Virus record (IMG/VR): IMGVR_UViG_3300008108_007099 | Coordinates: 27,492 to 91,491 of that record | Direction: 5' to 3' (one strand) | DNA length: 64,000 nt | Origin: a virus | Shown: piece after piece, positions 55,869 to 62,227 of the stretch | Numbering within the stretch: position 1 is the first letter of the stretch | Layout of the letters: every line of letters starts with the position of its first letter | Made by a program: the position numbers and the translations under genes | The notes under the pieces: generated by a model | What the model saw: only the letters and a program-made list of their open reading frames with translations | The model's database searches: none | What the model was told of the DNA's origin: nothing

Positions 55869-57281
55869 ATGGCAAAAATTTTACTTAAAAACGACATAAG
55901 CCAAATCACAACAAAGAATGAACCTTTGTCTAAATTTCTTTACGAGAATCTCAGATTCCGCGATAGAAATTATTTCCACAATAGAGCTTACAGGCAAAGA
56001 ATTTGGGACGGTTACACGAATTTCTTTAATAAAAATAACGGTAAATTCCTAACTGGATTGCTCCCAGAAATTTTGATGGCTTGCAAAGCCATGAATGAGC
56101 CAGTTGAATTTATTGACCAAAGAACAAATGTTGAATTTTCTGTAAAAGAAATAACCTCATCCTTTTTGCATTCCTGTACACCAAAAGGTTCTACACCAAT
56201 AACTTTGGAAGACTATCAGGTAGACTTGGTAAATACCGCAATCAAGAATAAAAGAGGTGTTATATTTGCGCCAACCAGCGCTGGCAAGTCGTTGACAATG
56301 CTATCCATACTTAAATGCCTACCGTCTGGCACTAAAACTCTTGTATTACAAAACAGAAAAACTCTAGCAATTCAAAACTACGAAGAATATACTAAATGGG
56401 GCCTCCATAATGTAGGACGCATTTGGGGTGGGGTTGATGAGCCCAGTGATATTACTGTGTCTACTGTTCAGTCTATTTCAAAAGCGGAAGATCTTTTGCC
56501 GCAAGTGGAAGTACTTTTAGTTGATGAAATACATGATATGATGAGCGCGGCTCCCAAAGCTGTTTACAGAATGCTAAAAAAATGCAGTGTTAGAATTGCA
56601 GTTTCTGCTACTCCTTTCAAATTTGGAGAAAGCGACAAAATACAAAAATTTTATGTTAAAGGATTCTTCGGCCCTCCCTTCAAAATTAAATCAACAGAAA
56701 CAGGAGTTGTTACAACCAAAGAATTACAAGAGCGCGGAAGACTATCCAAAAGCAAATGTAAATTCTTCAAAATAACATCTCCAGATTTAGAATATGAGCT
56801 TTACCAAGACGCTGTAAATTTGGGCATTGTCGAAAATGCCGAACTTCACGAGAAGGTTGTTAATTTAGCAAACTCACAGTTAGGCAGAACTTTAATTTTG
56901 GTCGATAGATTAGCCCATGGCGATACATTGCAGTCTCTAATACCCAACGCTCTATGGGTTCAGGGTAAGGATAATGATGAAACAAGAAAGCAAGTTATAG
57001 AACAATTGCAAAAATCTGAGAATTGTATAGCCATTGCTACACAAGGTATTTTCAATACTGGAATTAACGTATTTGTGCATACTTTGATTAATGCTGCCGG
57101 TGGGCAAGCAGACCATCAAATAATACAGAGAATGGGTCGCGGTCTTAGAACAGCCAAAGATAAAGAAGAATTACTTTACATTGATTTTATATTTGAAACA
57201 AACCCTTACCTACACAGACATAGCCTAAAACGGGTCAAAATTTTGCAAAAACAGGGACACGATGTAGAAATTCTGGACTAA
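55869..57281 (+). CDS. uvsW: SF2 DNA helicase, UvsW-like
   Basis: WDGY, DYQ, APTSAGKS, DEIH, SATP, TGIN, QRMGRGLR. Confidence 0.88.
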   Translation: MAKILLKNDISQITTKNEPLSKFLYENLRFRDRNYFHNRAYRQRIWDGYTNFFNKNNGKFLTGLLPEILMACKAMNEPVEFIDQRTNVEFSVKEITSSFLHSCTPKGSTPITLEDYQVDLVNTAIKNKRGVIFAPTSAGKSLTMLSILKCLPSGTKTLVLQNRKTLAIQNYEEYTKWGLHNVGRIWGGVDEPSDITVSTVQSISKAEDLLPQVEVLLVDEIHDMMSAAPKAVYRMLKKCSVRIAVSATPFKFGESDKIQKFYVKGFFGPPFKIKSTETGVVTTKELQERGRLSKSKCKFFKITSPDLEYELYQDAVNLGIVENAELHEKVVNLANSQLGRTLILVDRLAHGDTLQSLIPNALWVQGKDNDETRKQVIEQLQKSENCIAIATQGIFNTGINVFVHTLINAAGGQADHQIIQRMGRGLRTAKDKEELLYIDFIFETNPYLHRHSLKRVKILQKQGHDVEILD

Positions 57282-57652: not shown

Positions 57653-58471
57653 TTGATGCAGCATAAATTATTATTTAAAGAGTGGATTGGCAAGAGTCCT
57701 GAAGTTATGTACGGATTTAGGCCAGACGTAAGCAAAATTGAGATTCCATTCTATGAATTGGAGCCAATAGAAGCCTTTAGTGTTGAGAAATGTTTAGAAG
57801 CTTTGGCCGCGACTGGTAAAATAGACGGAAAAGAAGCAAATGACATTTGGAAAACTCAGCTTTCATACGGACATGGATTGGGAAAAGTTAGTGTTACAAG
57901 TTCTCCTTATGGATCCTATAAATTTGTAGTAAGAAGATATGTAACTGATGCTAAAGGTAATTTGGTGCCAATATGCAGGCTTGTAATACCACTAACAAAT
58001 GATTACAACCATCGCGGTCCTAATGACCCCGGCGAAGAAATATTAGCCGTCAAAATGTACGATAAAATTAAACAAATAATGTCAGAACCTTATCCTGCTC
58101 CTAATTGTGACTTTCAAAAAAGATTCGCGCACTTTGTTTACAACTTTAGTAAAGCCGTTAAATTAAAACATCCAAACATCATGGTTTACCAAGGCACTGT
58201 TAAGTTAGACGACAATAATTACATCATCAGTTTTACCTTTAAAGGATATGGTAACGGCGTGCCTAACTCACAAAAAGCAGAAGAGTTTTTGATTAATTGG
58301 CAGTATCTGCCTGAGACTGGATTATTGAGATGCTGGGGTTATGACGTAGTTTCTCCTGTAAAACAACGAGAATGGCAACCTGCTGTAAGTGAATGGGATG
58401 AGTATTTTTGTCCAACTCAGCCAGAAAATCAGATTATGAGTTGTATCATGGAAGCTTTTATGACCTATTGA
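57653..58471 (+). CDS. Hypothetical protein
   Basis: 272 aa; N-terminal LLFKEWI. Confidence 0.7.
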   Translation: MMQHKLLFKEWIGKSPEVMYGFRPDVSKIEIPFYELEPIEAFSVEKCLEALAATGKIDGKEANDIWKTQLSYGHGLGKVSVTSSPYGSYKFVVRRYVTDAKGNLVPICRLVIPLTNDYNHRGPNDPGEEILAVKMYDKIKQIMSEPYPAPNCDFQKRFAHFVYNFSKAVKLKHPNIMVYQGTVKLDDNNYIISFTFKGYGNGVPNSQKAEEFLINWQYLPETGLLRCWGYDVVSPVKQREWQPAVSEWDEYFCPTQPENQIMSCIMEAFMTY

Positions 58472-59150
58472 TTTCAAAATCAAATAAGTTATTATATATT
58501 TCTTTAGCATAATCAACGTTAAATTTATCAAAACTTTTAGAATCAGTTCGCTGAGTAATATCGTTTTTCAATTCTTCTGGCAGTTTTTTAATCCACTCTG
58601 ACAAATAAATGTAAATTGGTTTAATCTTTCGTAAAATTGCAGAAGTTTTAATCTTTGAAGCATTTTCTGCGTATTTTTCAAATGTTAATTCGTCGCCGCA
58701 AATTTTCTTAATTTCTTTCAAGCTCTCAAGCAAATCATACTCCATATCAGCATCTTGCATTGAATAAACTTGTTTTGTTAATTTATTCGCGTTTGCAACT
58801 AACTTATTCCAATAAAACCAGCGCCTTTCAGCTGGATCTCCTGTTAAAATAACAGGCTCGATTAATACAGGCGTGTCTTTTTTATTTATTCTTTTGAATA
58901 TCATCAATTGAGCTTTAATAAATAATTCGTATTCACCAATAGTTTCAAAATCTCTTTCTTTAATTAACTTAAGCATAGTCCTGAAAAGAACACTTTTCTT
59001 CAGGGTTTTAATTTGGGGGGTTTTAGAATGCATGTAATCAGGGAAAATCTTCCGCGATAATTCGACCCATAAACAACATACGCGGTAAGCAGTATCATCT
59101 TTGCCACTGAAACCATGCAACATGCTCATTTCTGGATCGTATTTCATCAC
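58458..59150 (-). CDS. Hypothetical helical protein, divergent from the ncRNA/PolA locus
   Basis: 230 aa; TAGAAT 6 nt before ATG 59147. Confidence 0.7.
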   Translation of the reverse strand: MMKYDPEMSMLHGFSGKDDTAYRVCCLWVELSRKIFPDYMHSKTPQIKTLKKSVLFRTMLKLIKERDFETIGEYELFIKAQLMIFKRINKKDTPVLIEPVILTGDPAERRWFYWNKLVANANKLTKQVYSMQDADMEYDLLESLKEIKKICGDELTFEKYAENASKIKTSAILRKIKPIYIYLSEWIKKLPEELKNDITQRTDSKSFDKFNVDYAKEIYNNLFDFEINRS

Positions 59151-59211
59151 AAAATTCTACATCTAAATCAAATTTGCCACAACTGCAAAACAACTAAAAT
59201 TGGTCATGGAT

Positions 59212-59652
59212 TAGTAAGGTGAATTAACGACCTGAAAGTCCATCGAGTCTCTTTCATAAGACAATGTTAATTCATTGTTGAAATTTAGAGATGGAAAAAC
59301 CAGTTGGGTCGATTACTCATTACCTTCAAAAGAGATTTGAGTAAAAGATAACCCCTGTGGTATGTAACGAGTACCATGGACCAACTACGGCAAAGAGGTG
59401 AGCCATACCTCCTACCCCAGCTGATGCGGGTTACCTGTCAGAGAAATCTGAATAGGTTGAAAAAGGGGTGAAATCCAACAAGAGTGAGTACTAACAGACT
59501 CAGGGTGGTTGGATTGGACAGTATGGTTAGTAGTTGCAAAACAGTTAAGTCAGTATCTCTTTAAGGTTACCAACTCCTTAGTTTTAAAGAAGATAAGTAA
59601 ACTTCTTACTTTTCTTTTTAACTATGAGTTACAGGAACCCGTGGAGGTCGGT
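59212..59652 (+). ncRNA. Candidate large structured non-coding RNA (~440 nt), family not recognised
   Basis: 585-nt gap with no ORF in the track and >=10 nested helices found by eye (coordinates in findings). G-U pairs and a GAAA tetraloop favour the + strand. Ends approximate. Confidence 0.65.
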
Positions 59653-59682
59653 TTTGAATAGCGATTAAAATTCTTTAATTAT

Positions 59683-59718
59683 TTGATATTTGTAACTTTT
59701 ATGGTATTATCCTAGAAT
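59683..59718 (+). promoter_or_regulatory. Sigma70-like promoter(s) for the PolA-like gene
   Basis: TTGATA-N16-TATTAT (with TG extension) and TTGTAA-N17-TAGAAT. Confidence 0.5.
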
Positions 59719-59735
59719 GTAAATTAGGAGAAGGC

Positions 59736-61040
59736 ATGCAGTTACAAGATCTTACGGCCAAGCTATTTGATTTCTTTAGCAAGACCAGAATGGTTTTTGT
59801 AACTTGGGATCCTGTTTCTTTTGACTCTACGACCCTAGCTAAGCTTCAAGTTCGAATTAGGTTCGATAACGGCAAAGACAATTCGATCGCGGTTCCTCTC
59901 AATTCAAGCAATTGTTTGATAATCACCAATATCCTTGAAAAACTTAATTCCACCCGTAAAACAGTTTTCGTTGGGCATGACTTTAAGATTCTGTTTACAT
60001 TTTTCAGACGTTTAAATAACAAACTTCTCGACTTGGCAAACGTATTTGATTTGGGTTGGTACGAATCCTATTACTCAAAACCTTCATCGGCAGGTAACCA
60101 AGTCCTGCAAGTTAAGCATTTGAAGGAATGGTTTGCCAACCAAGATTCTATGCGCGTATATCAAAACATATTTTCAAAATTAATTGTTCAAACCCTTCCT
60201 GCAATTGAAGGTAACGGTTTGATTAACACAGACCTTGGTCTTTTAGTGTTTCCAAATTTTGTTGTAGAAGGTCAGGCAAACGGAAGGTTGTCTTGTATTT
60301 GCGAGTACAAGCGATGCTACAACCCGCACAGTTTGTCTGATGACGAAAAAGCCGATTTGATTCTCGGCAAAGACAACGAACTCTTTATTTGGTTCGATTA
60401 CAACAACATGGAAGTTGCTGTTCTTGCTGAATTAGCAAACGACGACAACCTCAAAGAACTTATTAGTAAGAACCCTAAACAGGTTTATGAGAAAATATTT
60501 GAGTGCGCGACAGGAACAGTTGTTGAAGATGCGAGGAAACTTGCAAAAACAATGTTTCTGCCATGCATTTATGGTCAAGGTGCTGCTGGTTTGGCAAAAA
60601 GCCTAGACATCTCCTTGGACCAAGCAGCTATCTACCTGCACAATTTGAGAAATGCTTTTTCTAAGAGCTTCACTTTTGTTGAAAACGCCCACAAAGAAGC
60701 TGCAGAAAATTCATGTGCAACAGATCGCTTCGGAAGGGTTCGTAGGTTCCAGTCTGATGAGGCGTTTAAGGCCCGAAATTTCGCAATACAGGCACCATCG
60801 GCTCTTTTATGCCTCGAGTCCTTGGTTAACCTCCAAAACGCCGCAGGAAAGCTTTTTAAAGTAATGTTCACGGTTCATGATGGTTATTGTATTGCTGGTG
60901 AAAAAAGTTACTTGGAAGAGGCGTACAGGTTGGCCAAATCTGTACTAGAAAAAACCTCAGAGTTTCTGCCGGTAAAACTGAGCGTGTCAGCAAAACTAGG
61001 AAGAAATTTGGCAAAAATGACATCCATAGGAAAAAGGTAA
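59736..61040 (+). CDS. polA: Family A DNA polymerase-like protein, short (thumb missing, degenerate exonuclease)
   Basis: NGRLS, motif A FDYNNMEV, motif B RKLAKTMFLPCIYG, RFGRVR, NFAIQ, motif C VHDG; SD AGGAG. Confidence 0.85.
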   Translation: MQLQDLTAKLFDFFSKTRMVFVTWDPVSFDSTTLAKLQVRIRFDNGKDNSIAVPLNSSNCLIITNILEKLNSTRKTVFVGHDFKILFTFFRRLNNKLLDLANVFDLGWYESYYSKPSSAGNQVLQVKHLKEWFANQDSMRVYQNIFSKLIVQTLPAIEGNGLINTDLGLLVFPNFVVEGQANGRLSCICEYKRCYNPHSLSDDEKADLILGKDNELFIWFDYNNMEVAVLAELANDDNLKELISKNPKQVYEKIFECATGTVVEDARKLAKTMFLPCIYGQGAAGLAKSLDISLDQAAIYLHNLRNAFSKSFTFVENAHKEAAENSCATDRFGRVRRFQSDEAFKARNFAIQAPSALLCLESLVNLQNAAGKLFKVMFTVHDGYCIAGEKSYLEEAYRLAKSVLEKTSEFLPVKLSVSAKLGRNLAKMTSIGKR

Positions 61041-61044
61041 ATGT

Positions 61045-61605
61045 ATGCTATCAGTTTTTAAAAACTTTCCAGTAAGTGATAAAGAATACCAGATACTAGA
61101 CAAAAAATTCGGCCAGTTGTGCTATTATGCTTCTTGGCAACTAATCAGAAAGAATAGCGCCAATAATCACCAGTTTGATTTGGATGATGTTTCTCAGGAA
61201 TTAATGGTTGCAGTGCTGAGGGCCGCCAGTTATTACAAAAGACAGGTGTTTATAGACACCTCCCTTTCAGCACTCAAAAATGCTAGCATGGATAAAACAA
61301 GCAGACTTATTGTTAAAGAATTGTCGAATCTATGGGACAATCGCACTCGACATGGTGCCAGCCGTCAGAAGTTTGGCGATCACCAAGAACAAATCATGAA
61401 AGAACTTTGCCGCAAATTTTTGCCACCAAACGAAATTCCGTCCATGACTCGTGAACTAATAATGGAAAATAAATTTTTAACTTATTGCAAACAAATCCTT
61501 TGGAATGCTACAAAACATTTAGGAAGAAAGATTAGTCGCGAAAAACCCCTTCGCGCTGGTCAAGTTAGTTTGTCTGATCACGAATACCTTTCAACCGTGG
61601 AGTGA
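61045..61605 (+). CDS. Divergent sigma-factor-like protein (region 2 only)
   Basis: DLDDVSQELMVAVLRA (2.2-like) and FLTYCKQILWN...GRK (2.3-2.4-like). Confidence 0.5.
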   Translation: MLSVFKNFPVSDKEYQILDKKFGQLCYYASWQLIRKNSANNHQFDLDDVSQELMVAVLRAASYYKRQVFIDTSLSALKNASMDKTSRLIVKELSNLWDNRTRHGASRQKFGDHQEQIMKELCRKFLPPNEIPSMTRELIMENKFLTYCKQILWNATKHLGRKISREKPLRAGQVSLSDHEYLSTVE

Positions 61606-61609
61606 AAAC

Positions 61610-62074
61610 ATGAACAGAGGCCCGTACGTAGAGATTAGATTGACACCACCAATGATTGAATTGGCTCACACTTTGGCCAAAGAACTAGGTGTTTTAAGAA
61701 ATTCAATCGAGGAAGGTGCTGGTAACATTACTGGATTCTGTGCCGAATTAGCATGCAAAAAGCACTTCGGCATACCTCTAGATGAAATTCAGAACACTTA
61801 TCACTATGACATTTTGGTTAACGGTATTACGTATGATGTGAAAGCTAAAAAAAGAAAAGATGCTCCAAGATACTGGCACGAAGCTAGCATCTCTGATTAC
61901 AACACAAGTCAAAAGTGTAATTTGGGTTTTTATCCGAAACAACAATATTTGGACGAAGCAAGATTCCTTAAAAAAGGACAAATCGATGGCTCAAATAATT
62001 TTGAAGTTAAAGGGGATTGCTGGAATTTGGTCTACGAAAAATTAAATCCAATCAGCCAAATTAAAAGAAATTAG
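61610..62074 (+). CDS. PD-(D/E)XK nuclease-like protein (paralogue of 63214, internally shortened)
   Basis: G..AE, YDI, YDVKAK. Confidence 0.6.
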   Translation: MNRGPYVEIRLTPPMIELAHTLAKELGVLRNSIEEGAGNITGFCAELACKKHFGIPLDEIQNTYHYDILVNGITYDVKAKKRKDAPRYWHEASISDYNTSQKCNLGFYPKQQYLDEARFLKKGQIDGSNNFEVKGDCWNLVYEKLNPISQIKRN

Positions 62075-62148
62075 TGCAAAGTCGTGGAGTTGAACCAACG
62101 TGTGCCGGCTTATAAGGCCGGTCCTCAAAGCCGTCGAGGACACTTTGC
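62075..62148 (-). tRNA. tRNA-Ile(UAU), atypical
   Basis: GCAAAGT/ACTTTGC acceptor, CCTC/GAGG D stem, CCGGC-CT TAT AA-GCCGG anticodon arm, GGTTCAACTCC T loop. G at position 8, bulged T stem, no encoded CCA. Confidence 0.75.
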
Positions 62149-62152
62149 AGAT

Positions 62153-62227
62153 TGGGCTCTCTGGGACTTGAACCCAGAACCGAACGATTATGAGTCGTTT
62201 GCTCTAGACCAGTTGAGCTAAGAGCCC
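62153..62227 (-). tRNA. tRNA with CAU anticodon, most likely Ile2 (lysidine)
   Basis: Canonical cloverleaf GGGCTCT...AACGA-CT CAT AA-TCGTT...CTGGGTTCAAGTCCCAG; the anticodon arm resembles bacterial Ile2, with no initiator features. Confidence 0.88.

Follow-up and report, generated by a model that had tools for sequence, protein, structure and literature searches.

What occupies the long gap directly ahead of a DNA polymerase gene in what appears to be the genome of a huge phage? The window analysed here is a 64-kb stretch of DNA (64,000 nt) that forms the last part of a 91.5-kb IMG/VR record. CheckV puts the completeness of that record at 15%, which implies a genome of roughly 600 kb. Positions 59151-59735 (585 nt) are the window's longest stretch without an ORF of at least 80 aa; the runner-up, of 416 nt, contains two tRNAs. 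A sequence-only reading of the window had singled out this gap and proposed that it holds a large multi-junction non-coding RNA rather than a simple terminator, one that it could not match to tmRNA, RNase P or a group I or II intron. It had suggested a search of Rfam, a comparison of folding with shuffled sequences and an analysis of covariation upstream of homologous polymerase genes. All three came out in its favour, although, as described below, many of the individual helices that it drew did not.

The features of the locus are as follows.

55869-57281: DEAD/ResIII helicase gene, near the RNA gap, with two small ORFs between it and the 229-aa gene
58458-59147, minus strand: divergent gene of 229 aa, syntenic in most loci (tblastn)
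59174-59200, plus strand: sigma-70-type promoter of the RNA, with -35 TTGCCA at 59174-79, a 15-nt spacer and -10 TAAAAT at 59195-200
59206-59652, plus strand: RNA gene, ~445 nt
59683-59710, plus strand: promoter-like site of the polymerase gene, TTGATA-16-TATTAT with TG, matching at 10/12 positions
59726-30, plus strand: Shine-Dalgarno (SD) sequence AGGAG of the polymerase gene, with its ATG at 59736
59736-61040, plus strand: family A polymerase (PolA) gene, 434 aa, matching Pfam DNA_pol_A (E 2.6e-27) over residues 212-425 only
61045-61605: 186-aa gene, followed by a 154-aa gene and the two tRNAs
62074-62227, minus strand: tRNA-Ile(UAU) and tRNA-Met (ARAGORN), 1 kb downstream and on the opposite strand

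Evidence for a new RNA family

Comparison across related loci shows that the plus strand of 59206-59652 encodes a predicted non-coding RNA of about 445 nt, which belongs to a new family. The plus strand folds at -129 kcal/mol, with a z-score of -4.3 against dinucleotide shuffles (-3.2 for the minus strand), and each of 18 homologues also folds better than its shuffles (z from -2.3 to -10.9, the shuffles here being approximate). No member examined has a stop-free run of more than 75 codons. We assign the RNA to the plus strand on the basis of an invariant G.U pair in the helix 59401-08/59521-28, other G.U pairs that are kept and the promoter.

The 5' end of the RNA is placed from its promoter, and the 3' end lies at or beyond 59652, where the last covarying pairing ends. 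The TAAAAT box that the sequence-only reading had noticed at 59195-59200 is real: it ends 6 nt before the proposed first base (59206), and in 16/16 full-length members the first helix begins 3-11 nt after the end of a TAnAAT box, these promoters scoring 8-11 against a background mean of 7.4. From its sequence, the promoter is of the kind expected to be read by host RNA polymerase.

Known families do not account for the gap. It has no match in Rfam 15 at gathering score and only noise at E-values up to 10; at gathering score, just the two tRNAs are reported. The same search of 12 related loci gave nothing relevant, and a blastn search with the gap as query found zero matches in 50,697 phage records. 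Three exact-motif scans of IMG/VR returned mostly chance matches, from which nhmmer retained only contigs that were already known. No second copy was found elsewhere in the 91-kb record.

Homologues were instead collected through the neighbouring polymerase, using about 100 loci of PolA relatives from IMG/VR, JGI metagenomes and one GTDB contig. At least 26 distinct contigs, from phages or metagenomes, carry the RNA at the same place, before a short PolA gene. Among the PolA loci whose upstream sequence is long enough, 26/26 have it; they belong to two PolA clades, whose proteins range from 85% down to about 30% identity to that of the window. With a profile HMM made from six sequences, 18 distinct members of 371-467 nt were identified; in these, the RNA stops 80-115 nt short of the PolA start. 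A covariance model of an 87-position core adds L151 (78.7 bits) and a third subgroup (L033, L035, L036 and L037, at 20-26 bits) and, with filters off, a fourth (L053, L055, L067 and L096, at 19-24 bits), all in the same genomic place as the other members; blastn adds L059 and L106. In all subgroups, the RNA and PolA point the same way, and 70-115 nt lie between the end of the RNA and the ATG of PolA. The comparison shows that the RNA is inherited together with the short family A polymerase gene and the conserved 186-aa gene, relatives of which follow PolA at about 100 loci with 47-82% identity.

The RNA is known only from what appear to be huge freshwater phages. RNA-bearing fragments of 91-132 kb have CheckV completeness of 15-27%, pointing to genomes of about 500-600 kb. 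One member, L151, is the 271-kb contig CAYVOK010000001.1, binned in an Acidimicrobiaceae MAG, with a PolA 41% identical to that of the window; it is either a lead to a host or a mis-binned huge-phage contig.

Covariation and architecture

The fold was scored on a MAFFT alignment of 18 sequences, made without knowledge of structure, using seven helices with 35 pairs. The partners can pair in 93.9% of cells, compared with 77.2% after shuffling, and 22/35 pairs show compensatory changes. Covariation reaches a score of 0.443; shuffled partners give 0.137, with 0/500 shuffles as high, and shifting the partners by 1-3 columns lowers the score to 0.05-0.11. For the core, an Infernal alignment (22 distinct sequences), which is biased towards the model by construction, gives 96.3% paired, 15/16 pairs with compensatory changes and a covariation score of 0.70 against 0.26 shuffled (0/500 as high). 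When every pair of columns was scanned without bias, three stacks stood out: the stem of the 5' hairpin, the pairing that we call PK1 and a long-range GC helix. The pairings of the window, which were verified base by base, are listed below.

59206-59243, plus strand: 5' hairpin domain, with an outer helix 59206-11/59238-43 (tentative) and an inner hairpin 59217-20/59230-33 (firm)
59221-29, plus strand: conserved 9-nt loop of the 5' hairpin, GAAKUGWCN
59224-59229, plus strand: 5' strand of PK1, in the 5' hairpin loop, pairing with 59542-59548 (A59543 bulged)
59247-59292, plus strand: variable hairpin, 59247-52/59287-92 with an inner helix 59260-66/59273-79
59293-59301, plus strand: A-rich joiner GGAAAAACC, an A-rich run followed by CC, nearly invariant
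59302-59386, plus strand: core three-way domain, in which helix 59302-07/59381-86 encloses a variable hairpin (59308-49) and the hairpin 59355-63/59371-79
59366-59370, plus strand: 5' strand of PK2, loop AACGA, pairing with the 3' tail 59648-59652
59390-59537, plus strand: central domain, with helices 59390-93/59534-37 and 59401-08/59521-28 and the hairpin 59472-78/59509-15 with 59485-89/59498-502
59426-59432, plus strand: 5' strand of H8, GCGGGUU, pairing with 59636-59642 (AACCCGU)
59572-59630, plus strand: A/U-rich long stem-loop, with its tip at 59586-97/59605-17 and a U-run at 59611-19
59636-59652, plus strand: 3' clamp, comprising the 3' strands of H8 (59636-42) and PK2 (59648-52)

In the 5' domain, the inner stem pairs in 100% of cells and 2/4 of its pairs show compensatory changes. 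The outer helix varies in sequence among relatives and did no better than shuffled partners in a crude, register-free test (5.5 vs 4.9 bp). The hairpin that follows is found at this position in all members, with differing sequence and length. The hairpin 59355-63/59371-79 of the three-way core carries ACGAG in its loop. The central domain has a conserved purine-rich internal loop (AGAGGUG / AGUAG); all four pairs of its basal helix 59390-93/59534-37 show compensatory changes, including swaps of whole strands (CAAC/GUUG to GUUG/CAAC), and the helix with the invariant G.U is 91% paired. The segment 59433-59471 is an insertion common to the window and L016 only. The structure of the 3' domain (59549-59635) is only partly worked out.

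Three long-range pairings appear from this comparative evidence to lock the 5' hairpin domain, the three-way core and the central domain together. PK1 joins the 5' hairpin loop to a strand about 320 nt downstream through six pairs, which are 99% paired and of which four show changes on both sides (G-C/A-U/U-A and A-U/U-A/G-C). H8 is 94% paired, with 4/6 pairs compensatory, and is rewritten between subgroups, from GGCGGGG/CCCCGCC to GGCAGGC/GCCUGCC, GGCUGGUU/AACCAGCC and, in subgroup 4, GCCGAC/GUCGGC. PK2 changes from CGAG/CUCG to CGGG/CCCG between subgroups and to UGGG/CCCA in L081; the window forms 4/5 of its pairs, and the A.G opposition is replaced by A-U or C-G in L027, in L081 and in subgroup 3. 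The clamp pairings thus change coherently from subgroup to subgroup. Since the 3' strands of H8 and PK2 both lie in the last ~17 nt, the 3' end would clamp two distant domains. A further pairing, of GGUG in the internal loop with a CACC, UACC or GGCC just before the clamp, fits subgroup 2 and was rejected for the family as it fails in the window, L002 and L016.

Of the twelve helices drawn in the sequence-only reading, about five hold. Four (59355-63/59371-79, 59401-08/59521-28, 59472-79/59508-15 and 59485-89/59498-502) are backed by covariation, and 59313-19/59338-44 survives as a local variable hairpin. Two more, 59413-18/59465-70 and 59433-42/59447-57, belong to the insertion seen only in the window and L016. 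The others gave way to different pairings or found no support (59306-09/59351-54). The complement in 59218-28/59266-76 is missing in relatives, and its bases form the 4-bp 5' hairpin and a pseudoknot instead; 59382-88/59530-36 is replaced by 59302-07 with 59381-86 and 59390-93 with 59534-37; and 59542-48, drawn as part of 59543-49/59617-23, pairs with the 5' hairpin loop. The idea of a pseudoknot between the 5' loop and the 3' end likewise had the wrong partners, the 3' end pairing with 59426-32 and 59366-70.

The polymerase, its neighbours and the slot between them

The 434-aa PolA has about 22 residues between its EGNGL and GRLS motifs, the position of the Klenow thumb. The thumb of Klenow has about 125 residues. 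The palm motifs are kept and the exonuclease motifs are degenerate (DSTT, GHDFK). In these features, namely a kept palm, a truncated thumb and a degenerate exonuclease, it resembles divPolA1, a second, divergent family A polymerase of large phages, as that is described in the part of Yutin et al. 2024 (PMC11348598) considered here; the same part makes no mention of an RNA associated with divPolA1.

The only lead for the 186-aa ORF in a protein atlas is a weak one, to a Sigma70 region 2-like protein. The 229-aa gene usually lies upstream of PolA on the other strand; its protein matched nothing in Pfam, PHROGs or a PDB profile search, and the atlas offers a weak, unconfirmed lead to the T4 gp59 helicase loader. 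A confident AlphaFold model of it (pLDDT 89.5) is all-helical with two domains; when it was compared with PDB folds by Foldseek and VIA-align, no match was convincing.

What the slot between PolA and the 229-aa gene contains follows the PolA clades. Depending on the clade, it holds the RNA described here, a second structured region with a basic ORF, an ORF resembling archaeo-eukaryotic-type (AEP) primases, an ORF of 387-398 aa or one of 551 aa.

The AEP-like ORF (421-438 aa; L056:995-2311, L057:771-2036, L112:740-2023, L063:1034-2311) occurs in a well-supported PolA clade of eight rows, directly upstream of PolA and in the same direction. It has an AEP-like N-terminal domain and a winged-helix-like C-terminal part. 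Two members match Pfam AEP-TOTE (E 5e-5 and 9e-5), both below the curated cut-off, and conserved residues fit putative AEP DxD and GIHAY motifs. Its fold matches are to Prim-PolC, CAPP Prim-Pol and the LigD polymerase (Z 6.4-7.7), from a model with a mean pLDDT of only 54. With moderate confidence, we regard this ORF as primase-polymerase-like.

The other occupants were noted in passing. The second RNA-like region is ~350-400 nt long and richer in GC (L041:1440-1840, L070:1740-2130, L091:1640-2030; also in L042, L046, L050, L054, L071 and L089) and is followed by a Lys/Arg-rich ORF of 70-85 aa. It matches neither Rfam nor the core model of the window's RNA family, to which it is apparently unrelated; in L070, a pairing between its ACGGGGCC stretch and a C-rich 3' tail can be drawn by eye. 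The 387-398-aa ORF (L001:1826-2989, L044:1096-2292, L048:287-1456) includes one from the 595-kb record LR756511. The L001 copy extends 4 nt past the start of PolA. By eye, the ORF shows GRVHTN, DIxNSQP and TIHDS motifs; the suggestion that it is itself PolA-like was dropped when hhalign against the PolA alignment gave a probability of 0.6%.

A possible partner of replication initiation

The reading that we tentatively favour, with low confidence and from genomic position, is that the RNA is a partner of replication initiation. It would be the first unit of a PolA replication operon and the RNA partner of that module. Instead of just adjusting expression, it would help DNA synthesis to begin, by providing a primer, by placing one or by serving as a scaffold for the polymerase, and it may act at a replication origin. 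We are led to this by the sister clades, in which the AEP primase-like gene sits in the same slot, in the same direction and directly upstream of PolA. We also count in its favour the closed, knotted fold ending in a clamp and, in subgroup 1, the separate good promoter of PolA.

Occurrence in the same slot as a primase gene is an association and not a function, and the slot may simply be a variable site, given that unrelated ORFs and the second RNA are also found there. The initiation reading also leaves the internal terminator-like hairpin unaccounted for. Its strongest form, in which the knotted RNA replaced the primase-polymerase and acts as an initiator, a primer or an RNA subunit for the thumb-less family A polymerase, strikes us as improbable. 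Searches of three RNA-bearing records turned up no AEP homologue anywhere else in them, but these records are only 15-27% complete and leave replacement a conjecture.

A possible leader of the PolA message

The chief alternative, which we consider possible if on the doubtful side, is that the RNA acts in cis as the 5' UTR of the operon of PolA and the sigma-like gene, controlling read-through, message stability or translation. Read-through might be controlled at the internal hairpin and U-run or after the clamp, in response to a ligand or a protein such as the polymerase itself. This would explain the constant co-orientation of RNA and PolA and their short spacing in every subgroup. In loci where the slot holds a protein gene, that gene too lies directly upstream of PolA in the same direction, and one promoter may serve the whole unit.

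The promoters speak on both sides. The PolA promoter is good in subgroup 1, which argues against a leader, and at background level in subgroup 2, where the RNA is, for want of a standout PolA promoter, probably the leader of the PolA message.

So does the terminator-like hairpin. The tip 59586-97/59605-17 with the U-run 59611-19 resembles an intrinsic terminator, and a hairpin of this shape with 6-9 U recurs with differing sequence in subgroups 1-3; in subgroup 4 (L053) the hairpin lacks a clear U-run. By eye, the first bases of 59426-32 can also form a small hairpin in most members, a hint of alternative pairing. A scan tool, however, called no terminator at 59586-59619, and the U-run is itself base-paired, to an A-run that precedes it, as part of a longer conserved stem. 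Because the covarying strands of the clamp come after this hairpin, the functional fold needs transcription to read through it. The same arrangement led us to reject a platform of the riboswitch or attenuator kind, which would overlap the 3' strand of the sensor: here, the terminator-like hairpin is upstream of the closing strands.

Beyond the clamp, the family comparison found nothing conserved in the spacer, including no conserved U-run; no conserved expression platform was found downstream of the RNA, nor any conserved sequence or pairing that links it to the PolA ribosome-binding site. Some PolA relatives do without the RNA. At 370-470 nt and with three pseudoknots, it would also be far larger than known riboswitches.

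Other explanations

A stand-alone ornate phage RNA unrelated to the polymerase, whether self-assembling in the manner of ROOL and GOLLD or a decoy against a host defence or factor, is in our view rather unlikely. In favour are its own host-type promoter, its compact knotted fold, the variable content of the slot and the fact that phages are known to carry large ornate RNAs of unknown role (PMC12286853); the linkage to PolA would then be inherited synteny. That linkage nevertheless persists in two separate clades and to PolA identities as low as about 30%, the RNA is single-copy in the 91-kb record, and it is not similar to the ROOL, GOLLD, OLE or HEARO models. Covariance models of ROOL, GOLLD, HEARO, OLE and raiA matched neither the window nor 12 related loci.

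It is very improbable that the RNA is a ribozyme or what is left of a mobile element (an intron of group I or II, an RNase P-like RNA or a self-cleaving RNA), even though its size and density of pseudoknots are typical of large ribozymes. The sequence-only reading could match it to none of tmRNA, RNase P and the two intron groups, and the comparisons that follow bear this out. The RNase P models RF00010 and RF00011 gave no match at gathering score or at E-values up to 10; RF00010 found nothing over the whole record and matches in 11/14 control genomes. The architecture is also wrong for RNase P: the two ends of the RNA are not joined by a P1-like pairing, the 3' tail being paired instead with the loop of a hairpin and with a strand enclosed by two helices, and no P4 helix of conserved CR-I and CR-V outside P2 was recognised. 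By eye, the window contains look-alikes of RNase P motifs, GAAAGUCC at 59234 and ACAGGAACCCG at 59631; these, like the 16S-like motifs (GGGUGAAGU, CACCUCCUUA in L023), are not conserved in the family and are therefore treated as coincidences.

For tmRNA, there is no Rfam match, and ARAGORN reports only the two tRNAs at 62074-62227. For group I introns, Rfam is again negative, the long-range 5' strand lies inside the central helices and not after a P4-P6 domain, and the order of helices fits the P3/P7 arrangement no better than it fits P2/P4 of RNase P. The RNA has its own promoter, and as PolA is a complete ORF with its own SD sequence and ATG, there are no exons to join. For group II introns, there is no Rfam match, and the sole domain V-like hairpin, with a GAAA loop (59433-57), is missing from most relatives. 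Inheritance looks vertical, which also speaks against a mobile element.

Finally, a DNA element such as an origin or a set of protein-binding sites that folds incidentally is extremely improbable: it could appeal to the location in a replication module and to a local minimum of cumulative GC skew near 54-60 kb, a signal that we discarded as uninformative because it tracks gene orientation on too short a fragment, and it is at odds with the kept G.U pairs (one invariant), which would be C-A mismatches on the other strand, with compensatory changes in pairings 200-320 nt apart that include loop-to-strand pseudoknots, with a promoter exactly at the RNA 5' end and with a reading of the region that revealed no iterons or repeat arrays.

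Comparison with known RNA systems

Few bacterial or phage RNAs reach this size and structural density, and those with known functions are mostly ribozymes or the cores of RNA-protein machines. The RNA shares with ROOL, GOLLD, OLE and raiA the size class of ~400 nt or more and a dense conserved structure. ROOL and GOLLD are associated with phages and prophages, and the biochemical role of the large ornate RNAs is unknown (PMC12286853). The two cases differ in setting: those RNAs are found near tRNAs, whereas the one described here precedes PolA.

With pseudoknot riboswitches and the autoregulatory leaders of phages, it has in common that a structured RNA lies directly upstream of a co-oriented replication gene and that a distal 3' strand closes the fold. 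Examples of such leaders are the T4 gene 32 pseudoknot and the gene 43 operator. Our RNA is three to ten times larger, has no expression platform that we could find and carries its own promoter, with a second promoter before PolA in subgroup 1.

The closest parallel to the initiation role that we tentatively favour is RNA II of ColE1-type plasmids, the primer that is extended by DNA polymerase I after forming a hybrid at the origin that is processed by RNase H. Both would be transcripts of several hundred nucleotides made from a host-type promoter, with a fold that matters for function, a likeness that for our RNA is read from genomic position. RNA II is functionally coupled to a family A polymerase in starting replication, and our RNA may be too, a coupling that we propose here by analogy. 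In both, a C-rich stretch close to the 3' end is paired with G-rich segments. The two show no sequence or structural homology, no antisense unit resembling RNA I was seen in the window, where a simple promoter scan gave no minus-strand promoter within 59206-59652, and to our knowledge RNA II does not have the three pseudoknots described here.

Whichever reading holds, the RNA provides a concrete, testable object for asking how huge phages start or control their replication, and a well-defined target for structure determination, with only about 370 nt in its shortest members and many natural variants. Should it have replaced a primase, it would represent an RNA-based start of phage DNA replication, for which the only counterpart that we know of is that of the ColE1-type plasmids.
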